Positions 1 to 42,036 of a stretch of 64,000 nucleotides of DNA are shown piece after piece; within the stretch, counting starts at the first letter, position 1; every line of letters begins with the position of its first letter. The notes below the pieces were generated by a model, which saw nothing but the letters and a program-made list of their open reading frames with translations, did no database searches and was not told the DNA's origin. The position numbers and the translations under genes were made by a program. The stretch is from a phage: the sequence record NC_101837.1; one strand, written 5' to 3'.

Positions 1-302
1 GTATAACTATACCCATGACTGATTGCCATGTCAACATATTCCTGCACATGTTTTTCTTTTGTAAACGTATTACTTACCACGATACGGTCGTATCCCATAC
101 GCATCATATCTTCTACGTTATCTTTGCACCATTTTGCTGCGAGTGTTACTTTACTTGCATCCCAGTTGTAATTGCCGTCATCGTCATACCAGAACATGTC
201 GTTCTCAAAATGTGGATACAGACCCTCTAAAGATAGCGCATTTGCCAGTGTTGATTTGCCAGACCCTGGTAGACCACGCACGATATATAGCATTTTAGAC
301 AT
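1..302 (-). CDS. P-loop kinase, polynucleotide kinase-like N-terminal part (gene runs off window start)
   Basis: Reverse frame from ATG at 300-302 is open to position 1: MSKMLYIVRGLPGSGKSTLANAL...; Walker A GLPGSGKST resembles T4 Pnk kinase P-loop; GGAGGG upstream. Confidence 0.5.
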   Translation of the reverse strand, partial: MSKMLYIVRGLPGSGKSTLANALSLEGLYPHFENDMFWYDDDGNYNWDASKVTLAAKWCKDNVEDMMRMGYDRIVVSNTFTKEKHVQEYVDMAISHGYSY

Positions 303-402
303 AGTGACCCTCCGTTTTAATTTCAACGGTAGTATACCTAACTGTTTTGTTAATTTCAAGTGTTGACACTAGGTTATTTGTGTGGCAGGATAGACTGACA
401 AA

Positions 403-1338
403 ATGACAAATGAGGAACATATAATGAAGTATTTTAATGCAGACGACCTAGTTGACAAAGGTCTTGTAACCAGTAGGTATTACCCAGATCTCGGGTTAAA
501 GATCTATAAATATGCTAGAAAAGTATTTTACAACAATTTATGGCATTTGTCCCCTCGTTTACTGGAGTGCCGAGGCATTGTTGTAGGTAATGAAGGAAAT
601 GTTGTGGCATGGCCCTTCACAAAAGTGTTTAACTTGGGAGAAAACTCCACCAACCTGCCTGACAATAAGCTTGTGACTGCGGTAGAGAAAAAGAACGGAT
701 TCCTTGGTGTGGTATCATCTCATAAAGGTGACCTATTGTTCTCAACAACCGGGTCTCTTGATTCTCCATATTGTAACCTTGCAAAGGAAACCATCCAAGA
801 GCAATGTGGTAATTTAGATCTTATCAAGAAGGTTATGGGCAATGAAAACATGACATTCATGTTTGAAATTTGTCACCCTTCAGATCCGCATATTGTTCAA
901 GAAGACCATGGCGCATATTTGATAGGTTGCAGATATAATGATTCTGGAATAATGCTACCAGAAGCAGCTTTAGATGGGATTGCCAAATACCTTGGTGCAA
1001 AACGTCCTCACACTGTGCGTGAAATCCCGTTCAGCTATGCAAAAGAATTAGCCGCAGAAACAAGGGGCGAAGGGTATATGATCCGTAAGCCTTACTACCC
1101 TTATGACCTGCAGCTGAAGATCAAGTCTCCATACTACCTGGCACGGAAGGCCGTAATGAGGGGTAAAGCTTGGAAGATTTGGGATGATGATATCTTTAAA
1201 CGTGTTGACGAAGAGTTTTACGGCATGGTAAACTTCATTCGTAACAATTACACAGAAGATGTGTGGAACTGCCTCCTGGAGCAGGAACGCCGTGAGATAC
1301 TTGACTGCTATTTCCACAACGAGGACTATATGCAATGA
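403..1338 (+). CDS. RNA ligase-like nucleotidyltransferase (Rnl2-like)
   Basis: Ligase-family motifs in order: KKNG (I-like), EGYMIRKP (IV), LKIKSP (V); divergent from Pnk-like gene. Confidence 0.5.
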   Translation: MTNEEHIMKYFNADDLVDKGLVTSRYYPDLGLKIYKYARKVFYNNLWHLSPRLLECRGIVVGNEGNVVAWPFTKVFNLGENSTNLPDNKLVTAVEKKNGFLGVVSSHKGDLLFSTTGSLDSPYCNLAKETIQEQCGNLDLIKKVMGNENMTFMFEICHPSDPHIVQEDHGAYLIGCRYNDSGIMLPEAALDGIAKYLGAKRPHTVREIPFSYAKELAAETRGEGYMIRKPYYPYDLQLKIKSPYYLARKAVMRGKAWKIWDDDIFKRVDEEFYGMVNFIRNNYTEDVWNCLLEQERREILDCYFHNEDYMQ

Positions 1339-1685
1339 AGAAGTTGATTGTGTGGCTGGATGACTTGAGAGATCCGTCAAATTACGGGCTCCAAGACGCT
1401 GTTTGGCTAAAGAATTCCTCCGAGTTTATAGATTTTATTAACGATAATAGAAAGCTCTACAGACGCGTTTCTGAGTGGCATATGGACAACGACCTTGGAG
1501 AGGTATTCGAAGGGTACGATTGCCTATCTATGTTGGAGGAAAAGTTTGTATTTGGTAAGCCTCCTGTAGTTGACAACGTGAAGATTTTCGTGCATACTTC
1601 TAACCCATCAGCGGCTCGTAAATTCATGCTTGCGGCTGACTCGTTTAAAAAGTTTGGAATAGAGATTAAACAAAACATCTACTGA
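1335..1685 (+). CDS. hypothetical protein (116 aa)
   Basis: ATGA overlap with upstream stop; tiled ORF. Confidence 0.45.
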   Translation: MKKLIVWLDDLRDPSNYGLQDAVWLKNSSEFIDFINDNRKLYRRVSEWHMDNDLGEVFEGYDCLSMLEEKFVFGKPPVVDNVKIFVHTSNPSAARKFMLAADSFKKFGIEIKQNIY

Positions 1686-1693
1686 GGACACTT

Positions 1694-2455
1694 ATGCGAC
1701 GACTGATTGTTATCTCCGGTGCTGGTTTGAGTGCTGAATCTGGTATTCCCACTTTCCGATCTGGTAGCACTGCAATGTGGGAGAATTTCAGCATCGATGA
1801 GGTGTGCAACATCCACACCTTTGCCAAGAACTACTATAAGGTGCATGACTTTTACAATGCACGTCGTGTAGCTTTAGGCAGTGTTGAGCCTAACCTTGCA
1901 CATCTTCGGATCGCTGAGTGGTATTCCCGCTGGTCTGGTCGTGTGATCAACCTTACCACCAATGTAGATGATTTGCTGGAGCGTGCTGGTGTAAAACATG
2001 AAGATATTTTACATGTCCACGGGTATTTGCCAGAAATAGTCTATGAGGACGATGAAGGAAGTGACGTCATTAAGGACATTGGATACTCTGAGGTAGACGC
2101 AGGAAAGTATACCTGGGTTAAGCCTAATGTGGTGTTCTTCGGAGAAGTAGCTCCGAAGTATACAGACATGTATGACCTGTTGACTTCTCTTACGAGCAAT
2201 GATATGGTTATCCTTGTAGGGTGCTCCAACACAGTTATCAATTTTAACTGGGAGCTATTCCCTGCCTGCAATAAGGGAACAAAACTGCTGATCGTTAACA
2301 AATACGACTCACAGCAGCTAGGGGAGAATGGCATTTCACGTAGTGATATTTACCAATATGAGGATCGCGGCATCCCAGTTTGGTTTAACGGGGCGGTTGA
2401 TGCTTTCTCTGATAAAACATTCATTGAGACCGTAGAAAACTTTATGGAATTTTAA
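1694..2455 (+). CDS. Sir2-family NAD-dependent deacylase (CobB-like)
   Basis: GAGLSAESGIPTFR Rossmann motif, FYNARR, TTNVDDLLERAG, catalytic HVHG; zinc-ribbon cysteines not evident. Confidence 0.8.
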   Translation: MRRLIVISGAGLSAESGIPTFRSGSTAMWENFSIDEVCNIHTFAKNYYKVHDFYNARRVALGSVEPNLAHLRIAEWYSRWSGRVINLTTNVDDLLERAGVKHEDILHVHGYLPEIVYEDDEGSDVIKDIGYSEVDAGKYTWVKPNVVFFGEVAPKYTDMYDLLTSLTSNDMVILVGCSNTVINFNWELFPACNKGTKLLIVNKYDSQQLGENGISRSDIYQYEDRGIPVWFNGAVDAFSDKTFIETVENFMEF

Positions 2456-2468
2456 AAGGAGACCTTTA

Positions 2469-3182
2469 ATGCTGAATACCAAATTAATTGACAACCTGGA
2501 AAAACTGTCCCAACCTGAAAACTACCTTTGGTCTGCCAACTGGGTGGAGAACTGGAACCGTGTGGCAGCTAAAGTGAAAAAATCATACACACCGTTCGAA
2601 TTACAGCTTAGCTTCATTGAGGAAGAGTTCAATGAAGTTTTGGAAGAGCTGGAGAAAGGTGATGGTGGAGATCACCTGCTAAAAGAGGCCTGCGATCTTC
2701 ACGTTGTCACAAGTTATGCCACTTATCTTGTTAATGACAATCACGAAAAGTGGTCAAGCCTGTTTGATAATCCACAGGGTCTTAAGTTCAAGATCGGTGA
2801 GTTCTATGATACCCTGATCGCTGCGAAAAACACACCTAAGCAAAGAGCGTCAGCTTACCGCTTAGCGGAGTTGTCAACAGCTTTGCTGTTCCAGCTTCGC
2901 GGCGATGTGTGCGGGATGATGCGTAAGGTTCTCAAATCGAATGACAGTAAGTTTGCACGGGTCAACCATCTACGGTATTCACACGGTGCCGGTGCAGATA
3001 TGCCTGCTGAACAACTCATCGAGTTGGAGATTAAAGATCTTGAGCGACGCTTTGATGGTAGATATGAAGGTTTTGTTGCTAAGGAAGAGTTCTACAACGG
3101 TAATAAAGTTATCATATTCCTTGACAGTAAAGGTAAGATCATGAAGCCTTCGAGCTTCAAGGATGTAACAGAGTATATTTAA
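2469..3182 (+). CDS. hypothetical protein, possibly MazG-like NTP pyrophosphohydrolase
   Basis: Acidic EEEFNEVLEELEKGDGGDHLLKEA segment resembles MazG metal-binding helix; weak. Confidence 0.4.
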   Translation: MLNTKLIDNLEKLSQPENYLWSANWVENWNRVAAKVKKSYTPFELQLSFIEEEFNEVLEELEKGDGGDHLLKEACDLHVVTSYATYLVNDNHEKWSSLFDNPQGLKFKIGEFYDTLIAAKNTPKQRASAYRLAELSTALLFQLRGDVCGMMRKVLKSNDSKFARVNHLRYSHGAGADMPAEQLIELEIKDLERRFDGRYEGFVAKEEFYNGNKVIIFLDSKGKIMKPSSFKDVTEYI

Positions 3183-3188
3183 CAACAT

Positions 3189-3212
3189 AGCCGGGATTAC
3201 CCGGCTTTACTT
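3189..3212 (+). terminator. putative intrinsic terminator
   Basis: Stem AGCCGGG/CCCGGCT with ATTA loop followed by T-rich run, just after stop at 3182. Confidence 0.55.
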
Positions 3213-3224
3213 GTTGTGGAAAGT

Positions 3225-3554
3225 ATGCAAGTGAGGCAGATAGTTATGTACAAGCACTCTAGAGATCTTGAAAACGATGCTGTGTTTGGGGATCAGATGA
3301 AAGAGTTGGTTAAACTCATAGGCAGGATAGAGGATAAGTTTGACACTAAGATCTACATCGACAGCAAAGTCTTCAACCACAAAATATGGACAAATCTGTG
3401 TGTTGGACTACATGGAGATAAAGATGTGGTAAATTTAGTTGTAATTAAGTTCATAGTGTGGCAGAATAAAACTATAAATTATTACGATCCACACCTGCTT
3501 GTTTACCCGATAAAAGACCTATTAGATAAGGAGGACTGCAATGCCGTTATTTAA
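3225..3554 (+). CDS. hypothetical protein
   Basis: Track ORF 3216..3554; first ATG at 3225 after terminator. Confidence 0.4.
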   Translation: MQVRQIVMYKHSRDLENDAVFGDQMKELVKLIGRIEDKFDTKIYIDSKVFNHKIWTNLCVGLHGDKDVVNLVVIKFIVWQNKTINYYDPHLLVYPIKDLLDKEDCNAVI

Positions 3555-3810
3555 TCTTGCTAAACCTGTAGAAGCACACCAGTTTGACGGAAGCTCTTCA
3601 TCAGTATCTGATCTGCAACGGTGGATTGATACAGGTGTGTTTACATCGTCACCTGTTCGGACCAGAGATCTTCGTCGCATGTGTGAGCTTGTAGAGCCGT
3701 TTGGTAACCTAGTCTTGTACCAGGGAGATTGGTTAGTTGACTTTATGGGAGACTGGTTGGTAATGAGTAAAGAAGAGATGTTTAAAATTTTTAAGGAAGA
3801 GGCCGAGTAA
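3541..3810 (+). CDS. hypothetical protein (89 aa)
   Basis: Tiled ORF, start overlaps upstream end. Confidence 0.4.
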   Translation: MPLFNLAKPVEAHQFDGSSSSVSDLQRWIDTGVFTSSPVRTRDLRRMCELVEPFGNLVLYQGDWLVDFMGDWLVMSKEEMFKIFKEEAE

Positions 3811-5093
3811 TGCATCAAATCAAAACAACACTGTACGCACTGAATAAAGATGGCAGCTACCAACAGTGGAAAGTATTCACGGATGGTGATAAGGTTATCG
3901 TAGAGTTTGGCAAGCTTGATGGTAAACTGCAATACAAAGAGACGATCTGCACACCTAAGAACGTTGGTCGCGCCAATGAAACTACAGCTGAGCAACAGGC
4001 CGAGCTGGAAGCGATCAGTAAGTGGGAAAAACAGGTCCGACTTGGGTACGTGGAGAGTATGGAAGATTGTGAGCAAGGTGTTGATCTTCTACCCATGTTG
4101 GTGCATGACTACCTGAAGCGTGGCAAGGCACTTAAATTACCTTGCTGGATCTTGCGTAAGTTAGATGGCCTTCGTCTACTTGTTGTTTTCCAGAATGGTG
4201 AGCCTAAATTTATTTCCCGTGGTAATAAGTCCTACCCTATTCAAGGAAAGCTTCTGGAGCAACTTCGCTCTTTCCACCTAACCACCGGGATTAAACAGCT
4301 CGACGGAGAGCTCTATATTCATGGTCTTCCTCTGCAGAAAATAGTGTCTCTTGCTAAACGGTGGCGCACACAGGAAGAAATTCAGGCCGAGATCGATAAA
4401 GACTACAAGGCAGATAAAAAACGCCGTCAGGCTGCGATTAAGGCAGGTTTAGCAACATACAAAAACTTCAACAAGATGGACATTCCTGTTGATGTTGAGC
4501 CTGTTCGTGATGATTTGCGTTACGGAGGGTACTGCAGCTACGACTTGGAGTATCATATTTTCGATATTCCTAGCGATAAGGTGTGGTGGGATCCTGAAAC
4601 AGAGTCTGGACGCTGTAAGGATCTTATGGAGGCAAATGGTGCTATTGCTTCTTTGATGCTTGATCATATTAAGGTTGTTGATGCAGAGCTTGCATACACA
4701 GTTGATCGGTGCGAAGAGTCTGTTGGTATATTTATGTCTGAGGGATATGAAGGTACCATTATGCGTAACTTCTGTGGTAAATATGAGTATGGTCAGCGAA
4801 CATCTGAAGCATTGAAATGGAAAAAGTTCAACGACGCAGAGGTGAAAGTTATTGACGTTGAGAAAGATAAGAATGATGAAGGTGTTCTTATCTGTGTTGA
4901 CAAGGAAGGTGTTGTTGTTAAAATGAAGATGAAAGGCACGCACGAGGAGCGTAGCTATGACAGGATGCAGGAAATGATCGGCAAGTTTGTCACCTTCAAA
5001 TATCAAGCAAGGACAGAAGACAACAACTACCAATTCCCTGTCGGTATCTGCGTCCGAAATGTTAACCCAGACACTTGGGAGGTGCTGGAATGA
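3810..5093 (+). CDS. ATP-dependent DNA ligase
   Basis: Motif I RKLDGLRLL (KxDG), motif IV EGYEGTIMR, motif V KWKKF; 427 aa. Confidence 0.8.
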   Translation: MHQIKTTLYALNKDGSYQQWKVFTDGDKVIVEFGKLDGKLQYKETICTPKNVGRANETTAEQQAELEAISKWEKQVRLGYVESMEDCEQGVDLLPMLVHDYLKRGKALKLPCWILRKLDGLRLLVVFQNGEPKFISRGNKSYPIQGKLLEQLRSFHLTTGIKQLDGELYIHGLPLQKIVSLAKRWRTQEEIQAEIDKDYKADKKRRQAAIKAGLATYKNFNKMDIPVDVEPVRDDLRYGGYCSYDLEYHIFDIPSDKVWWDPETESGRCKDLMEANGAIASLMLDHIKVVDAELAYTVDRCEESVGIFMSEGYEGTIMRNFCGKYEYGQRTSEALKWKKFNDAEVKVIDVEKDKNDEGVLICVDKEGVVVKMKMKGTHEERSYDRMQEMIGKFVTFKYQARTEDNNYQFPVGICVRNVNPDTWEVLE

Positions 5094-7473: not shown

Positions 7474-7782
7474 ATGCTTAAAATTTTTATTGTTGAAGAT
7501 AAAGATATTGTCCAGTTGTATGCAAACGAGAATCATAAAGGTATGATTCTGAAGAAGGCAAGCAACCTTCATGAAAACACAATTCAACCTGGCGATGTAA
7601 TTAAGATCTGTGGTTATATGATATCAGACTCCTTGATGAAAATAACCCACCACTGGGGGTCTAATCCGTTCCTTTTTGAAAAGTATTGGGATGTTGAGTC
7701 ACTTATTGCAGAGAGTGATGATGCATTCCATTACAGCATCCAACCATCTTGCAGAATAACTAACAGGAGGGTCTTTGAGTAG
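7474..7782 (+). CDS. hypothetical protein (102 aa)
   Basis: ORF after promoter with AGGAG RBS. Confidence 0.45.
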   Translation: MLKIFIVEDKDIVQLYANENHKGMILKKASNLHENTIQPGDVIKICGYMISDSLMKITHHWGSNPFLFEKYWDVESLIAESDDAFHYSIQPSCRITNRRVFE

Positions 7783-8914
7783 AGAATATCCACTTATTGA
7801 GTCCATAGATTGTCTGGCTGATCTTCTTGAACCTGACGCTATAGTTTATTATGACTTCGATCAGGTTGCATATCAAGCTGCAGCAAGTTGTGAAAAAAGG
7901 ACAATTGAGGTAACACACAAAGCCTCCGGACGTAAGAAGATGTTTAAAACACGAACAGAGTTCTGGGGGCGGCAGAAGAACACCGTTGGTGGTTGGTTAA
8001 AAGCTGAGAATACCAACCGTGAAGCTGCATGTAAAAAGGCTGGCAAGGAGTTTATTCCGTGGACACGAGAAGATTTCGATGTCTTGGATATCCAAACCCC
8101 TGATCCTGTAGAGAACTGCTTGCACACAATTAAGTGTAAAGCTAATGCAGTCCTTAATTATCTCGGTATTCCGGAAGATCGGTGCGTGGGGGTACTTGGA
8201 GGCACAGGTAATTTCAGACTAGATCTTCCCATGCCGGAAAGATATAAAGCCAACCGTAACAATACTCTTCGACCACTGCTGCTTGGAGATGCAAGACAGT
8301 ATCTCCAAAAGCAGTATAATGCTCAAGTGATCAACGGTATCGAGGCTGACGACTGGTTAGCTATCCAGCAATTTGAAGGTTGGAACCACTACCAAAAAAC
8401 AGGTAAGTTCAACAAGTTTATTATCTCTATTGATAAGGACCAAAGAACACTACCGGGGCTTGTGTTCGATCCCATGCGAAACGATAAGGGAGATTTTGTA
8501 AGAGAAACCCCTATGCTGATCGATAACGGTATGGGGAACATCTTCATGAAGCCTAATGGAGAGGTTGGTGGTTACGGAATGCTGTTCTTCGGATACCAAA
8601 TGCTGTGTGGTGACTCTGCTGACAACATTAAGCCGTATCAAGGACTTATCGGTAAGGGTAAGTTCGGAGATGCCTCAGCATTCTACCTACTGTCTCAGTG
8701 CAGCACTCCAAAGGAGATGTGGGTGGCTATTATTGATCAGTACAAGAAGTGGTTCCCAAAAGGTGTTGTTAAGTATACTGACTTCAATGGTATTGATCGT
8801 AGAATTTCCGTAGGTCAGTGGATGAGTATAATTTTTGACTGTTTGTATATGAAGCGAACATTCAATGATCAAACAAAACTTGTTAACGTTCTTAGAAATG
8901 TTGGAGCAATTTGA
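7775..8914 (+). CDS. 5'-3' exonuclease / flap endonuclease
   Basis: GIEADDWLA motif typical of FEN/5' nuclease family; TTG start after AGGAGGG. Confidence 0.7.
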   Translation: MSREYPLIESIDCLADLLEPDAIVYYDFDQVAYQAAASCEKRTIEVTHKASGRKKMFKTRTEFWGRQKNTVGGWLKAENTNREAACKKAGKEFIPWTREDFDVLDIQTPDPVENCLHTIKCKANAVLNYLGIPEDRCVGVLGGTGNFRLDLPMPERYKANRNNTLRPLLLGDARQYLQKQYNAQVINGIEADDWLAIQQFEGWNHYQKTGKFNKFIISIDKDQRTLPGLVFDPMRNDKGDFVRETPMLIDNGMGNIFMKPNGEVGGYGMLFFGYQMLCGDSADNIKPYQGLIGKGKFGDASAFYLLSQCSTPKEMWVAIIDQYKKWFPKGVVKYTDFNGIDRRISVGQWMSIIFDCLYMKRTFNDQTKLVNVLRNVGAI

Positions 8915-38435: not shown

Positions 38436-38464
38436 TTGACACATTACCGCTCTCGTGATAGTAT
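38436..38464 (+). promoter_or_regulatory. sigma70-like promoter
   Basis: TTGACA, 17 bp, TAGTAT. Confidence 0.55.
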
Positions 38465-38484
38465 CCACACATCGTTTGGAGAAT

Positions 38485-38586
38485 ATGGGATACACAATGA
38501 GAACATTGTCTGAAGTTTTAGTGGTGATCCTGATGATTATTACGTCCATAGCGGCTGTTGCCGGAATACTCACAGGTGGAACATGA
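38485..38586 (+). CDS. small hydrophobic peptide (33 aa)
   Basis: MGYTMRTLSEVLVVILMIITSIAAVAGILTGGT; stop overlaps next ATG (ATGA). Confidence 0.4.
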   Translation: MGYTMRTLSEVLVVILMIITSIAAVAGILTGGT

Positions 38587-38795
38587 TCAACACACATGCA
38601 TCTGAAGAGACATCCAAAGGAGTGACCATATGTCCATTGGCTGAGCCAGTGAAAGGGGAAAACTTCGATTCTGAAGATTCTCCATCTTCGCTCCAGGTAG
38701 ATCCTGAGGCTGATGACTTGACGTGGGGAGACATCGTAGATATCTGGTTCTCTATTATGCCTGAGCACGAAGAGTTCAGAGGTGGTAGACTATGA
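38583..38795 (+). CDS. hypothetical acidic protein (70 aa)
   Basis: Coupled to upstream peptide. Confidence 0.4.
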   Translation: MINTHASEETSKGVTICPLAEPVKGENFDSEDSPSSLQVDPEADDLTWGDIVDIWFSIMPEHEEFRGGRL

Positions 38796-38917: not shown

Positions 38918-39133
38918 ATGAAGATAGAAATATTTGGTGGGGCTGACAACACTCGTGGCCTGATTTACCTTGAATTCGATGAATCATACCTGCCAGAGGT
39001 GTTAAATATAGACTCTGTTGCTGAGGCTTTGGGAGTAAACCCTAAAGAACTCCACTCTTGTGCTGAGATCGATGGTTGGGAAGAGACCATGAACATTGAT
39101 TTCAGTGAAGTAGAGGATGAACCGCTGGACTGA
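38918..39133 (+). CDS. hypothetical acidic protein (71 aa)
   Basis: AGAGGAG RBS. Confidence 0.4.
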   Translation: MKIEIFGGADNTRGLIYLEFDESYLPEVLNIDSVAEALGVNPKELHSCAEIDGWEETMNIDFSEVEDEPLD

Positions 39134-39260
39134 CACACAATTAGCTGCCCGGCTAAAGTGCTGGAAGCACCTATAACACATCTTTCAACTAAATTTCCTA
39201 CCACCACAATCACTTACCTCCCACACATGACTGTTTGCTTGTTTAGTGAGCAGTCATGCC

Positions 39261-39288
39261 TTGACATTCTTGCCTATCTTGATAAAAT
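39261..39288 (+). promoter_or_regulatory. sigma70-like promoter with no ORF downstream
   Basis: TTGACA, 16 bp, TAAAAT; downstream 250 nt is purine-rich and non-coding. Confidence 0.45.
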
Positions 39289-40663
39289 TAAGTTCTTCTC
39301 TTTTCTTTTACCGAGTAATTCGGGTTTTCTGTTCTCTTCGGTTTGAAGGGGTATGGAGATACACCTGAGTGAACAGGGTGAACAACCGAACCTTTGGCTA
39401 TGGCATTAGCATGGCGAAGCGGACGGGTGACGAAAGAGGGGCCGGAGGACACCAGTCACTGCCATATGATATATGGGTGATAACCTGAAGAGTCTGAATA
39501 AGTGTTTAAGTACCAGTCAGAGGAAAAGGTGAATGGTAGCCGAAGGGGGATGGGGGGTTTCTTGTATCTTTAATTTGTATATTATGTATACACTTGTAAA
39601 CCAATCTCATCTGAATCTGTTTACCACACAAAGCGGATAGAGACAAATATCACCTATTAAACTTGAATTATTTATAGAAAATACCACAACACCAATTAAG
39701 TCTTTGATTTTAAACACAAATCCTACAGATATTCAACCTCCATATTTAACATACTCGTAACATATTCCATACTCTACCTGTCTGATCAATTTACCCAACT
39801 ACATCCCCATATTTTCCCTGTCTGTACTACCCCATCCCCGCCGGGAGTCCCGTCATATCTGGCTTTCCAGCAAATATCACACCCACAAATATCATTGCCT
39901 GAAGAGGGTTTCATCCCATAATACATGCCTTACATGAAGAGCGCTTCATACACCACGTAAATTTTTTAATTGACCTCCCCGCCGCCGGAGAGGTTGGCTT
40001 TTCCCCACACAGACCTGAAGAGTCAGCCAGAAATATCTGAACAGGTCCAGTTCTGCCTTGTCATGAGCCGTAGCGACTGGAGTGCTGCCAGGCGGACGGA
40101 ATGGGAATACTTCTCATTCTTATAATAATTCTCAAATATCGAGGCAGTGAGGCAAATTAATAGGTGAGGCCGTTCACACAGTGGCACAACATTTGCAATC
40201 TATTTTGTGGGGGTGAATGAGAATACCTATCATTGTGAGAACTGTTATCATTACGGGCAATTTAACATAATACCCATTATGCGCACCACTGGCGATCCAT
40301 ACAGGGATTGATAACATGAGTTACAGTTTACGCATATAACAATCATATTTCTTACTATTTGTGTGGGATATAGTTAGCAGCCGATAGATTAGATATTGAC
40401 CTGTGGACTTCCAACCGTCTAGACGTCTAAACGCCCACACAACAAGGATTATACATACATTACTGAATGTAAACAGGGCCGCAAAAATGCTACCATACCA
40501 GTTTGTAAATTTTTCATGCAGCACTTGACAAAGAGAGGAAAAACTTGTCTGACATGCTGGGCATACTTCACACCTTAAACATACTCAACACTGGATACAA
40601 TAACAATTGTTACTATTGCATGCCTCACTGTTCACGTATAGACTATTTGCTCAAAAATGATAA

Positions 40664-40955
40664 GCCATGCCATTCGTTTGCATGATAACAATAACGATCA
40701 ACAACAATAAAGACTGAAATGATAACGTTGTTGATTTGACTGACTAACAATTAACAGGCTAATAATCTATGACATAATATAAAAGCAGGGCAACTATTAG
40801 CAGATCTATAGTTGCCTTGCTTGTTATGTCATGATTAACTAAATACAAGGCAACTATGATCTGATTAATAGTTTGCAGACAAACTATCACGGGGGTGATG
40901 GTTACTGCTTTTATATTATGTCGCGACTCCGTCGCGCCATGCCATTCGTTTGCAT
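40664..40955. repeat. composite repeat: 20-bp direct repeats flanking 18-bp inverted repeats and iteron-like motifs
   Basis: GCCATGCCATTCGTTTGCAT at about 40664 and 40936; GACATAATATAAAAGCAG (40771) and its reverse complement (40905); AAGGCAACTAT-like motif in both orientations between them. Confidence 0.5.
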
Positions 40956-41616
40956 AGTTGCCTTATTGTTACAGATAAAATAATTGTATTGTTAATTATT
41001 TCTTATCTTTCTATTAGTCATCTAATGATTCCAGTTAGTATAGTAACGTACAGTAAACATTAGACGACTAAAGATTTCTCTGATTATGATAACTTGCCGT
41101 GACAATTTCAGACTGTTTACGAAAAATGTTGACACCTGAGCTGATTTATGTTATGCAATTTAAACGAATAATTATTTTATGCAGGTATTGACTATTCTGT
41201 TATCCTATGGTCGGAATAAATACTTAGCAGGCTATAGAATGGTGAGCGTACGTAAATTCTGAGATCTGTCGGCTATAGTTATACTCGATTTTTCACGTAG
41301 AACACGCTTTTTGGTTTGTGTAAGTGTATGACTTATAAAGATTTTTAGTTGTTGACAAGATATTGAAGATGTGCATCAGGTTAAATTTTGTGCAATAGCT
41401 GCATTACGTGCAATTTTGGAAGGAAAACGGGTAAAAATAGCACCGCTACCACACAATGAAAGGTTATGCAATAGTTATTTTACATGTATATTTGTACAGT
41501 GTGTGGGATTGATGGCTCGTCAATTATTCCACTTGCCAGGTAGGGCCGTTTATGGTAGGGAGGAAGAGCAGACAAAAAGAAAGGGACCTAAGCCCCTTGA
41601 TAATTCAGTTAAAAAA

Positions 41617-42036
41617 TTATAATGATTCGTATATTTCAAAAATCCGATTTGCCAGGTCGTTACGGTACCGGAATTTTTCATCACGTTTGATCATAAGATC
41701 TTTATAGCCGTACTCTTTAAGCACTTCATTAACTTTATGGCGGCACACCTTCATATTATCCTGAGCGTCACCAATAAACCTGTTGCTATGGTGCATGGCT
41801 TTAATTTCTTCTTCCAGGACCAGGGCAACTATGCGGACCGGATCAAGCTGATAGGCGGTAACATCCATGCGGCATTGTAAACGGCTTTTTACGTCTGCCA
41901 CCGGATATACTGCAACCTCTTCCCCGTCAACATTGACAATAATTAGTTTACCATCGATTTCGAATCCTTTCGCCGCCGGACCGTGACAAAAAGCGTTATC
42001 AAAGCTATATGCCGGATTATTAGATTTAATGTTCAT
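41617..42036 (-). CDS. hypothetical protein (139 aa)
   Basis: Last gene of leftward block. Confidence 0.45.
   Translation of the reverse strand: MNIKSNNPAYSFDNAFCHGPAAKGFEIDGKLIIVNVDGEEVAVYPVADVKSRLQCRMDVTAYQLDPVRIVALVLEEEIKAMHHSNRFIGDAQDNMKVCRHKVNEVLKEYGYKDLMIKRDEKFRYRNDLANRIFEIYESL

Follow-up and report, generated by a model that had tools for sequence, protein, structure and literature searches.

A Near-Invariant, Promoter-Led Element beside the Terminal Repeat of rV5-Like Phages Is a Candidate Noncoding RNA Gene

RESULTS

Genes and genome ends around the gene-free zone

We identified the 64-kb window (the whole stretch of DNA analyzed here) as belonging to an rV5-like Escherichia coli phage (Vequintavirus). 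The features discussed below are collected in Table 1. As an earlier sequence-only reading had proposed, two gene blocks converge: the last plus-strand coding sequence (CDS; 38918 to 39133) faces the first minus-strand CDS beyond the gap (41617 to 42036) across 2,483 bp that are free of open reading frames (ORFs) (39134 to 41616). Calling this a convergence zone is accurate but incomplete, as the zone also corresponds to a concatemer junction with a 459-bp direct terminal repeat; the physical genome ends inside it had been overlooked. The annotated repeat of phage Gotham, in which positions 1 to 459 of the record are identical to positions 136567 to 137025, maps to 40091 to 40549. At least four further records begin at 40091, and two finish at 40549. 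Gotham virions have defined ends with 459-bp repeats, and packaging always proceeds from one specific start sequence (PMC7471380). By homology to Gotham, the same sequence is expected at both ends of the virion DNA, as in a direct terminal repeat with defined ends, and 39134 to 41616 is accordingly read here as the meeting point of the two ends of the linear genome.

In the paper on rV5, the genome was treated as circularly permuted, with a grey "non-coding" box drawn between genes 163 and 164 and a skew change at rV5 positions 104425 to 105475 (PMC3606486). When mapped to rV5, the lower bound of that skew change (104425) falls close to the G-run described below. The rV5 box and the 459-bp repeats of Vequintavirus represent the same locus as the zone studied here, and both the rV5 and Gotham papers leave the conserved promoter-led element, its boundaries, and the G-run undescribed.

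Table 1 Features of the gene-free zone and its borders, in window coordinates
Feature	Position	Strand	Basis
Terminal CDS of the right genome arm, 71 aa	38918-39133	+	ORF list; CDS in all curated relatives
Perfect 14-bp hairpin adjoining the -35 hexamer	39226-39260	+	-18.4 kcal/mol, z = -6.25 (0/200 shuffles)
Sigma-70 promoter with no gene behind it	39261-39288	+	TTGACA, 16 nt, TG-n-TAAAAT
Ultraconserved noncoding core, candidate RNA of ~263 nt	39295-39557	+	Conservation; stops in all frames
Predicted 5' hairpin, 75 nt, many G.U pairs	39308-39382	+	-28.5 kcal/mol, z = -4.15 (0/200)
G-run followed by U/T-rich tract, 3' limit of conservation	39545-39575	+	G5AUG6 here, G5-7AG5-6 in relatives
AT-rich spacer, 32 to 35% GC, ordinary conservation	39560-39790		Composition profile; alignment
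C-tracts on plus strand (G-tracts on minus), relaxed G4 potential	39794-39853	-	Regex scan; GC skew -0.53 to -0.57
Weak hairpin plus U4, possible alternative 3' end of a read-through transcript	39972-40004	+	-12.1 kcal/mol, z = -0.98 (not significant)
Direct terminal repeat of virion DNA, 459 bp	40091-40549		Gotham's annotated repeat maps here; single copy in collapsed assembly
Tandem 18-nt repeats, two copies, within the terminal repeat	40219-40254		repeat_region in phage navn
Hypervariable stretch with many indels, on the inner side of the left terminal repeat	40550-40765		Alignment: identity 0.25 to 0.74, gaps up to 68%
Second near-invariant noncoding module, long palindrome	40766-40950		GGCAACTAT, four copies
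Intrinsic terminator of the left-arm operon	41581-41598	-	GC-rich 7-bp stem plus T-run

An orphan promoter and an ultraconserved core

We defined a strong sigma-70 site by a score of at least 11/12, and a downstream gene as an SD sequence, a start codon, and an ORF within 400 nt. The window contains 20 strong sites, and only the one at 39261 to 39288 had no downstream gene. Its identification as a promoter in the sequence-only reading was well founded: it consists of TTGACA (39261 to 39266), a 16-nt spacer, the TG of an extended -10 element (39280 and 39281), and TAAAAT (39283 to 39288), and it scores 11/12. Relative L044 has kept both hexamers and the TG, with a spacer that has diverged and lengthened from 16 to 18 nt. 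The hairpin directly upstream of the -35 hexamer is nearly invariant among relatives and is probably either an operator or an element that terminates the upstream operon or stabilizes its 3' end. No credible antisense promoter was found against the core; there was just a weak minus-strand site (9/12) in a variable stretch.

Sequence variation was nearly absent across more than 120 phages over the stretch that begins with the -35 hexamer and reaches the G-run (39557). In an alignment of relatives, about 15 of 300 columns varied in the core stretch, compared to 25 to 60% of columns in the flanks. The core ranked first among 4,988 sliding 270-nt windows when 50 kb was compared with two relatives of about 92% identity, placing it above the polymerase and nucleotide metabolism genes of that region. 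Metagenome relatives whose flanks are 82 to 85% identical had two to four changes in the core; even a relative with 82%-identical flanks had two to three changes in 263 nt and a diverged promoter spacer between intact hexamers. The description of some 270 nt past the promoter as GC and purine rich and devoid of a credible ORF also held, with stop codons in all six frames, 49% GC over about 265 nt (42.8% in the window), and 63.6% purine from 39330 onward.

Such uniformity might reflect a mobile promoter cassette that has spread recently through recombination, with perhaps little function, rather than selection on each base. The terminal zone is indeed mosaic and indel rich, a neighboring cassette between direct repeats occurs in some relatives but not in others, and the right-flank gene is shared with another subfamily at about 90% identity. 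We nevertheless consider a recent cassette quite unlikely. All carriers (118 phage collection records, 1 misfiled "plasmid" record, and 6 metagenome or viral contigs) have the core at the same locus, and its edges in L044, L043, and L014 are functional signals (the -35 hexamer and the G-run) rather than scattered breakpoints. In L043 and L014, the sequence diverges completely directly past the G-run.

Coding potential and similarity searches

We next considered whether the core could code for a very small protein, or for several. A 39-codon ORF with a GTG start (39369 to 39488) has a GGAG 10 nt upstream, and small ORFs have been placed here in some automatic annotations. Against this, the ORF carries two synonymous versus six nonsynonymous changes among relatives and a premature TAG in L013, the same relative in which a 54-codon minus-strand ORF is frameshifted, and the ATG at 39353 is gone in two relatives. 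Codon positions are equally conserved, as are stretches that are closed in every frame, and the element (39261 to 39557) is unannotated in every curated record. Given the nonsynonymous excess, the premature stop, the frameshift, and the lost start, we rejected protein coding, which seems to us highly improbable.

The core did not belong to a recognizable RNA family. ARAGORN found no tRNA or tmRNA genes in the 64-kb window, in agreement with the earlier failure to find a tRNA-like cloverleaf. The Rfam scan proposed at that stage (Rfam 15 covariance models, including 6S, pRNA, group I and II introns, GOLLD, ROOL, and riboswitches) gave no hit at the gathering threshold; at an E value of ≤10, there were three meaningless matches, all beyond the core. 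The corresponding loci of the sister lineage contained no Rfam families either. As for host mimicry, no match was found in 5,426 E. coli genomes. The single match among 72,556 plasmids was a misfiled Vequintavirus genome, and there was no similarity to plasmid primer RNAs. Seven matches in the GTDB species set (representative bacteria and archaea) were 20 to 22 nt long and were dismissed as chance. No complementarity to the core beyond chance (≥12 nt) was detected in the 64 kb, and antisense targets were not found there. A CsrA sponge was rejected by eye from the sequence and predicted fold, as GGA motifs were neither visibly enriched nor located in loops.

We also searched for distant homologs. 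Synteny of the upstream regulator gene was of no help, as it is not conserved in Seunavirus, Mydovirus, or Certrevirus. The core was absent from A73, LTH01, and SKA64, which share the right-flank gene, by both blastn (word size, 9) and an nhmmer profile, and no comparable strong orphan promoter was found in these loci. In A73 and LTH01, a G5AG5AG5 sequence with a T-rich run lies on the same strand, some 13 nt past the homolog of the repeat boundary. The sister lineage without the core has the same terminal backbone and type of replisome.

Predicted structure of the core RNA

The predicted 5' hairpin is more stable on the plus strand than on the minus strand (-16.5 kcal/mol; z = -2.56). It is nearly invariant among the copies examined: two relatives have a G-to-A change at 39355 that retains the pair with U39330 (G.U to A-U), and single relatives show a G-to-A change at 39377 or the loss of 1 nt at 39348. 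The 5' and 3' ends (39293 to 39305 and 39542 to 39556) are predicted to form a closing helix, which is rich in G.U pairs and would therefore form in plus-strand RNA only. Among the near-identical sequences, the 86 predicted pairs showed no compensatory and one compatible one-sided change, and covariation is uninformative because the sequences are too similar. Recurrent polymorphisms of the core sit in unpaired columns, whereas two changes, each confined to a single sequence, disrupt weak helices of the predicted fold. At 39530 to 39575, no GC-rich terminator hairpin with a U-run was detected (z = -0.05); the 3' end instead consists of the long-range helix followed by a U-rich tract.

These features are compatible with a stable, structured RNA that would act in trans, for example in early host takeover, as a decoy, or as an antidefense molecule, by binding to a protein. 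Such a role is possible, and so, with similar reserve, is pairing of the 5' pyrimidine tract with the 3' G-run, which would close the molecule and, together with the U-tract, end transcription. Conservation of the primary sequence over the full length, loops too, suggests dense contacts. The closing helix fits plus-strand RNA, and a terminator-like hairpin followed by a dedicated promoter resembles the layout of an inserted module. The restriction of the core to one lineage is what an accessory function predicts, and the related phage PhiTE reportedly counters a host defense with a noncoding RNA mimic (PMC3475682). On the other hand, a trans-acting RNA has to do without a canonical terminator, a complementary target in the window, or similarity to Rfam families, host, or plasmids. 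Pyrimidine and purine tracts pair in many registers by chance, and the AT-rich stretch and the position beside the repeat are left unexplained.

Alternatively, the core might act as DNA, either as a recognition or assembly site for packaging or in terminal repeat processing at concatemer junctions, with transcription being incidental or helpful. The distance to the repeat boundary is 534 bp, in a phage with virions all packaged from one specific start sequence (PMC7471380), and paired and unpaired positions are equally conserved. However, the conserved block begins exactly at a consensus promoter with a freely varying spacer, the stability of the hairpin is strand specific and G.U dependent, and the sister lineage has a homologous repeat boundary without the block. 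An unbroken invariance of 263 bp is also long for a protein-binding site. We therefore regard a DNA-level role as unlikely.

The G-run and the downstream C-tracts

The G-run reported near 39545 is present, with GGGGGATGGGGGGTTTCTTG at 39545 to 39564. The 64-kb window contains just one double G5 run, against an expectation of 0.07. The interrupting AT was seen in this phage alone; the run reads G5-7AG5-6 in every other relative examined, and its length differs between isolates. The sequence-only reading had also pointed out the reverse complement of GGGGATGGGG downstream. This copy exists (39830 to 39839), but it is a 10-nt match with an E value of 13. In relatives, the downstream copy reads CCCCTGCCCC, CCCCACCCCC, or CCCCATCCCC and varies independently of the G-run. 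With no covariation and a match at chance level, the link between the G-run and CCCCATCCCC is unsupported; we rejected long-range pairing of the two runs and, from the sequences compared, regard the GGGGATGGGG/CCCCATCCCC complementarity as a private chance match.

Whether the minus strand near 39826 has a G-quadruplex motif depends on the rules applied. No canonical motif (four tracts of at least three G's; loops of ≤7 nt) was found there, whereas with loops of ≤12 nt, 39794 to 39853 is the only minus-strand site in the window, kept in 15 of 16 relatives. One other relaxed motif lies elsewhere in the window on the opposite strand.

A palindromic module on the left-arm side of the terminal repeat

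The second near-invariant module forms a long palindrome that contains GGCAACTAT four times and has 20-nt direct repeats on either side (40664 and 40936), and it folds stably on both strands (z = -8.4 on the plus strand and -9.5 on the minus strand). Phage FV3 lacks exactly one 20-nt repeat and the intervening 272 bp. The module is thus dispensable, and the GGCAACTAT palindrome is unlikely to be an essential origin or packaging site. A scan of 39100 to 41700 found neither a perfect DnaA box nor clustering of DnaA boxes. A DnaA- or iteron-type origin was rejected, as there is no DnaA cluster and the sole iteron-like cluster (40766 to 40950) is the one missing in FV3.

DISCUSSION

The idea of an orphan promoter that drives a noncoding RNA of about 250 to 300 nt from near 39295 fits the comparative data well. 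Conservation is bounded by the -35 hexamer and the G-run, with the hexamers kept even in L044. The core is also the most conserved 270-nt segment of the 50 kb compared, has a strand-specific hairpin, and follows the only strong promoter without a gene. For these reasons, 39261 to 39557 is likely a genuine noncoding transcription unit, and we infer a transcript from about 39295 because the element is conserved. In having its own promoter and no ORF, the unit resembles a classical bacterial or phage sRNA gene, from which it differs in lacking a local GC-rich terminator hairpin with a U-run. The searchable literature contained no transcriptomes, noncoding RNAs, R-loop data, or origin-mapping data for Vequintavirus.

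The 3' edge of the core, GGGGGAGGGGGGTTTCTT, nearly matches human mitochondrial CSB II, GGGGGAGGGGGGGTTTG (PMC4176368). In CSB II, a hybrid G-quadruplex stops transcription at a downstream T-run and yields a replication primer, and the length of the G-run varies naturally (PMC4176368, PMC5027508, PMC3488243). We took G5-6AG6-8 on the nontemplate strand followed by a T-run, with a promoter upstream, as the signature of a CSB II-type primer-forming element (PMC4176368, PMC5027508), and at the sequence level, the phage locus has this signature. The motifs are near identical (GGGGGAGGGGGG plus TTT in the phage and GGGGGAGGGGGGG plus TTTG in human mitochondrial DNA), with variable G-run length and both G-tracts on the nontemplate strand. 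In both cases, a noncoding transcript runs into the motif from a promoter (LSP in mitochondria, leading to G5-6AG7-8 and a T-run; the phage transcript is the putative one). Mitochondria and the phage also have in common a T7-type replisome with a family A polymerase and a gp4/Twinkle-like helicase, which in the phage is a gp4-like helicase-primase (also PMC3606486). The systems differ in that the transcribing enzyme would be the multisubunit host polymerase in the phage and is single subunit for CSB II, and unlike CSB II, the phage has an ultraconserved RNA body of about 250 nt. The motif is convergent, with no homology.

Our preferred mechanism, which we put forward tentatively, is a host-transcribed RNA acting in cis as a primer or R-loop. 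Host RNA polymerase would start at the 39261-to-39288 promoter and make an RNA of about 263 nt from near 39295, with a stable 5' hairpin and a 3' end at G5-7AG6 and the U-rich tract (39545 to 39575). The G-rich RNA would remain on the template, either in an R-loop or in a hybrid quadruplex formed by the RNA and the displaced G-rich DNA strand, and transcription would halt within the U-rich tract. From the 3' end of this RNA, the T7-type DNA polymerase would then synthesize DNA rightward, across the AT-rich stretch and into the terminal repeat. Such priming would provide an origin of replication, a means of copying the terminal repeat where concatemers are joined, or both. We favor the cis-acting primer because the G-run motif is unique in 64 kb and is followed by 230 bp of AT-rich DNA, because a canonical terminator is absent and the replisome is T7 type, and because A73 and LTH01, without the core, carry G5AG5AG5 and a T-rich run near the putative repeat boundary. 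The unit also points to the terminal repeat, like phiOR of T7.

In T7, phiOR is a promoter and secondary origin by the right terminal repeat, used by T7 RNA polymerase. Both promoters lie in the last noncoding stretch of the right arm and are directed toward the terminal repeat or concatemer junction, and both phages combine short direct terminal repeats with a replisome of the T7 type. T7, however, employs its own RNA polymerase instead of the host sigma-70 enzyme and is not known to have a G-run or a long, conserved RNA body. RNA II of ColE1 is a structured RNA of a few hundred nucleotides, transcribed from a sigma-70 promoter, whose G-rich segment is needed for persistent hybrid formation with the template at the origin. 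The phage unit shares the sigma-70 promoter, the (putative) noncoding RNA of a few hundred nucleotides, and the G-rich segment. Nevertheless, the replicon here is a phage with its own polymerase, and the element has neither plasmid similarity nor an evident antisense partner of the RNA I type. A ColE1-type RNA II was rejected, as there is no homology to plasmid primer RNAs and no credible antisense promoter. The pRNA of phi29 is likewise encoded by a noncoding RNA gene near the genome end with a strong early promoter, but phi29 is another type of phage with another packaging system, and no Rfam pRNA model matched here.

Some observations count against a primer. The documented cases of CSB II-type termination involve single-subunit polymerases, and the phage motif, with its 11 to 13 guanines, falls at the weak end of the range for the mitochondrial polymerase (PMC5027508). 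Invariance over all 263 nt, loops included, is not obviously required of a primer. The lack of plasmid primer RNA similarity and of a DnaA box cluster, the zero compensatory pairs, and the two changes that break weak helices also belong here. As the core is absent from a sister lineage with the same terminal backbone and replisome type, it is not a universal origin. A stable trans-acting RNA is nearly as likely as the cis-acting primer or R-loop RNA. More speculative, and in our view doubtful, is the full proposal that a tailed phage with a T7- and mitochondrion-like replisome but without its own RNA polymerase has a CSB II-like primer made by host RNA polymerase beside its terminal repeat, in which the RNA body controls the hybrid and G5AG5AG5 of the sister lineage is a second version.

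The rV5-like phages are widely isolated, feature in BASEL and other model collections, and are components of cocktails for therapy and biocontrol. The majority of Vequintavirus records in databases begin at an arbitrary position, and spurious ORFs have been put into the zone by some annotation pipelines; for the window, the true genome ends can now be fixed. If the unit acts in trans, it would be a new and unusually constrained phage RNA. If it forms a primer, the transcript would locate the origin and extend a mitochondrial mechanism to a bacterial virus that depends on the host polymerase. Should the full CSB II-like proposal be true, the element would be the bacterial virus counterpart of the mitochondrial switch from transcription to replication.

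A conserved core in the gene-free zone

The 2.6 kb around the non-coding element (core at 39295-39557, plus strand; a candidate RNA of about 263 nt) matched 121 phage records at 90 to 98% identity, nearly all of them Escherichia Vequintavirus (rV5-like), and rV5_ev147 was the closest over this zone (97.8%). About 18 records (MG0656xx) named "Campylobacter phage" (host, Campylobacter jejuni) were 93 to 99% identical to E. coli Vequintaviruses across the zone and look mislabelled or contaminated. As the sequence-only reading had described, an ORF-poor zone lies between converging gene blocks: the gap spans 2,483 bp, from the end of the final plus-strand gene (39133) to the start of the first minus-strand gene (41617). 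Curated annotations of relatives agree with the gap and place nothing at the element; two pipeline annotations put ORFs of 30 to 60 codons in it, inconsistently from record to record. In the rV5 reference, the homologous stretch lies between gp158 and gp159 without any annotation, and the rV5 paper shows it as a grey "non-coding" box in which terminators were not found (PMC3606486). According to the same paper, GC skew changes at rV5 104425-105475 (PMC3606486); the lower bound of this interval maps, via matches of a 361-nt query (39240-39600), near the G-run at the 3' edge of the core. ARAGORN found no tRNA in the window, in keeping with the earlier failure to see a tRNA-like cloverleaf, and an Rfam scan gave no family match.

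We aligned 16 diverse relatives and found about 15 variable columns in the 300 of 39250-39549, versus 25 to 60% in the flanks, neighbouring protein genes included; conservation fell sharply at about 39550. All 118 records containing the 361-nt query matched it at 97 to 99.4% identity. When sliding 270-nt windows were ranked over 50 kb against S127 BCL3 and FV3 (both about 92% identical to the window), the core ranked first of 4,988 (6 mismatches; median, 41); its few near-rivals lay inside ordinary ORFs. Two more divergent metagenome contigs, with flanks 82% and 85% identical, had 2 to 4 changes in the 263-nt core. A recent recombinational sweep fits the data more poorly than either transcript-based reading discussed below and is quite unlikely. 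Contig L044 has scrambled DNA upstream and a promoter spacer that has diverged in sequence and lengthened from 16 to 18 nt, with TTGACA, TG, and TAAAAT all intact, and in L043 and L014 divergence is complete immediately after the G-run. The -35 hexamer and the G-run are therefore the limits of the conserved unit, as one would expect if it were a transcription unit. As proposed earlier, the stretch 39295-39557 is GC and purine rich (49% GC versus 42.8% in the window; from 39330, 63.6% purine, with 35% G and 16% C).

The window contains 20 promoter sites scoring at least 11/12, every one oriented along its gene block. Nineteen have both a ribosome-binding site and an ORF of 40 or more codons within the next 400 nt; the sole exception is the orphan promoter (see the table), which confirms the claim of a good promoter without a gene. 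A perfect hairpin directly adjoining its -35 hexamer probably ends the upstream (right-arm) operon; it could be that operon's missing terminator or an operator. Four relatives (L006, L007, L009, and L016) carry an additional 15-nt hairpin (G[CT]CTGCTTTGCAGGT) inserted at about 39140, directly after the last right-arm stop codon, which may be an alternative terminator. A second strong promoter is also conserved, and very variable, indel-rich DNA (38450-38700) follows it. Thus, promoters elsewhere in the zone are conserved islands followed by DNA that can vary freely, which is not the case at 39261.

Coding potential and predicted RNA structure

Stops occur in all six frames of the core, which agrees with the earlier view that no credible ORF follows the promoter. 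Only one internal ORF (39369-39488; 39 codons, GTG start) has a possible ribosome-binding site, and it showed 2 synonymous and 6 nonsynonymous differences and a premature TAG in one relative. That relative also carries a frameshift in a 54-codon minus-strand ORF, and the ATG at 39353 is missing in two others. Micro-proteins fit the data more poorly than a transcript acting in cis or in trans and are very improbable.

The whole element folds only slightly better than shuffled sequences (z = -1.6 on the plus strand and -0.4 on the minus strand). Its 5' hairpin is strand specific, the complementary strand reaching -16.5 kcal/mol (z = -2.56). In the consensus fold, a 5' pyrimidine tract (39293-39305) pairs with the G-run region (39542-39556), which would place a U-rich tract directly after the closing helix. 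Across 17 distinct sequences, the 86 predicted pairs included no compensatory change and one compatible one-sided change (G.U to A-U). Recurrent polymorphisms (39392, 39393, 39396, 39468, and 39469) all fell in unpaired columns, which supports the fold weakly, as the structure was predicted from the same sequences; single-sequence changes at 39411 and 39422 disrupt weak predicted helices. Loops are as invariant as stems, which implies selection on primary sequence throughout the core.

The zone as a concatemer junction

The Vequintavirus Gotham was shown to carry 459-bp terminal repeats at defined ends and to begin packaging at one specific point (PMC7471380). Its annotated repeat (record positions 1-459, identical to 136567-137025) maps to 40091-40549; at least four other records start at 40091, and two end at 40549. 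The gene blocks do converge as previously read, but that reading was incomplete, since by homology the zone is the concatemer junction of the phage genome, with ends placed by comparison with relatives. The repeat is single in the window because the assembly collapsed. The outermost operons of both arms are transcribed outward, toward the ends. In O157 typing phage 4 (L004; KP869102.1, "partial genome"; locus 1-3900), the upstream neighbourhood of the last right-arm gene has been replaced by recD2-like helicase genes on the opposite strand; faulty scaffolding at the genome ends is the probable cause. A DNA-level packaging site fits the data less well than a cis primer or a trans-acting RNA and is unlikely.

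The tandem repeats within the terminal repeat are possibly a protein-binding site. Just inside the left repeat, a hypervariable stretch has numerous lineage-specific insertions and deletions, and a second near-invariant module follows. The module is a 133-nt long palindrome (fold z = -8.4 on the plus strand and -9.5 on the minus strand) that carries four copies of GGCAACTAT; a site resembling a promoter lies at 40751-40778, and a hairpin resembling a terminator at 40882-40903. Perfect 20-nt direct repeats (40664-40683 and 40936-40955) flank it, and FV3 lacks exactly one of them plus the intervening 272 bp, so the module is an optional cassette.

Features of the non-coding zone and its surroundings (window coordinates unless stated)
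Feature	Position	Strand	Details
Second conserved strong promoter	38436-38464		TTGACA, 17 nt, TAGTAT with TG
Right-arm unique non-coding DNA	39134-40090		First of three zone segments
Perfect 14-bp hairpin	39226-39260		z = -6.25; directly adjoins -35 hexamer of orphan promoter
Orphan promoter	39261-39288	+	TTGACA, 16 nt, TG-n-TAAAAT; score 11/12
75-nt 5' hairpin, rich in G.U pairs	39308-39382	+	-28.5 kcal/mol; z = -4.15; 0/200 shuffles
Terminal repeat	40091-40549		Single copy in window
Two tandem 18-nt repeats, ATGAGAATACCTATCATT / GTGAGAACTGTTATCATT	40219-40254		Within terminal repeat; repeat_region annotation in phage navn
Left-arm unique non-coding DNA	40550-41616		Last of three zone segments
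Hypervariable stretch	40550-40765		Just inside left terminal repeat; identity down to 25%, gaps up to 68%
Second near-invariant non-coding module	40766-40950		216 bp inside terminal repeat
Right-flank 139-aa gene	41617-42036	-	Adjoins left end
GGGGGAGGGGGAGGGGG plus T-rich run, A73 locus (L033)	7874-7890 of locus	-	
GGGGGAGGGGGAGGGGG plus T-rich run, LTH01 locus (L034)	7493-7509 of locus	-	

Distribution and the sister lineage

The element is restricted to Vequintavirus. Sensitive blastn of 50,697 phage records returned solely the 118 near-identical copies, E. coli genomes gave no match, and representative bacterial and archaeal genomes (GTDB species set) gave only chance-level matches of 20 to 22 nt. 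The sole "plasmid" match (CP057073.1, 4619-4964; 99.4% over the core) is a misfiled Vequintavirus genome of 137,565 bp, deposited with an E. coli isolate and reflecting a phage in the carrier state or else contamination. The right-flank protein has homologues with 86 to 91% identity in the sister phages A73 and LTH01 (unclassified Vequintavirinae) and in Phapecoctavirus (another subfamily), usually near record ends, which suggests that terminal-region genes are exchanged or of shared ancestry. By blastn and an nhmmer profile, the non-coding zones adjoining these homologues lacked the element.

A weak backbone of common, colinear sequences (CCCACAAATATC, ACCTCCCCGCC, TGCTGCCAGGC, and ATTTAACATAATAC) links A73 and LTH01 to the window; TGCTGCCAGGC is the repeat boundary (40083-40093) and ATTTAACATAATAC lies inside the repeat. 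Both phages have a canonical terminator after the last gene. About 13 nt after the TGCTGCCAGGC boundary homologue, on the equivalent of the window's plus strand, comes GGGGGAGGGGGAGGGGG and then a T-rich run, the only similarity to the core detectable there. This makes the core a module particular to one lineage, while a lineage without it again shows an unusual G-run close to the right end and repeat boundary.

The G-run and the downstream C-tracts

The G-run (39545-39557) is the only double G5 run in 64 kb (0.07 expected). Every other relative examined has G5-7AG5-6, so the AT within GGGGGATGGGGGG is private to the window phage. A link between the G-run and a reverse-complementary copy downstream had been implied; nine relatives have CCCCTGCCCC as this copy, four have CCCCACCCCC, and three have CCCCATCCCC, and the copy varies independently of the G-run. 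Since a 10-nt complement is also expected by chance in the window (E = 13), the link is coincidental beyond generic G-tract/C-tract pairing. The C-tract cluster is unusual in its own right. The minus-strand G-quadruplex proposed near 39826 held only in relaxed form: the window has no canonical motif, and with loops of up to 12 nt, 39794-39853 is its only minus-strand site (one relaxed motif lies elsewhere on the other strand), and 15 of 16 relatives retain a relaxed motif at 39794-39853.

Possible mechanism and significance

We tentatively favour a core transcript that would act in cis, as a primer or R-loop, and start rightward DNA synthesis into the terminal repeat. The phage 3' edge (GGGGGAGGGGGGTTTCTT, consensus) is nearly identical to human mitochondrial CSB II (GGGGGAGGGGGGGTTTG), where an RNA:DNA hybrid G-quadruplex stops transcription at a downstream T-run and yields a DNA replication primer, and where G-run length varies naturally (PMC4176368, PMC5027508, PMC3488243). 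G-run length likewise differs among phage isolates. The G-run is followed by 230 bp of DNA with 32 to 35% GC, and the replisome, which combines a family-A polymerase with a gp4-like helicase-primase, is of the T7/mitochondrial type (see also PMC3606486). These features, together with the orientation toward the repeat, are why we favour a cis primer or R-loop. Counting against it, the host polymerase would have to respond to a CSB II-like motif, a run of 11 to 13 guanines is a weak signal even for the mitochondrial enzyme, invariance over 263 nt is not required of a primer, and the sister lineage manages without the core. Among known systems, ColE1 RNA II offers a comparison for a primer transcript, and the T7 phiOR promoter faces the terminal repeat just as the phage unit does.

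A stable RNA acting in trans, though doubtful, is nearly as likely. It best explains the sequence constraint over the full length, the predicted 5'/3' closing helix, and the accessory distribution, but leaves the G-run, the AT-rich DNA, and the position unexplained, and a complementarity search of the 64-kb window found no target or partner for it.

The non-coding box and terminal repeats are already published; the literature searched held no description of the promoter-led conserved element, which is absent from curated RNA families and unannotated in curated records. What the sequence-only reading observed is real and goes beyond chance features, repeat pairing excepted, and its interpretation was right in part. 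The element is a candidate phage-encoded non-coding transcription unit, for which we infer both transcription and a function of the product. The CSB II-like reading, if true, would be the more novel outcome.
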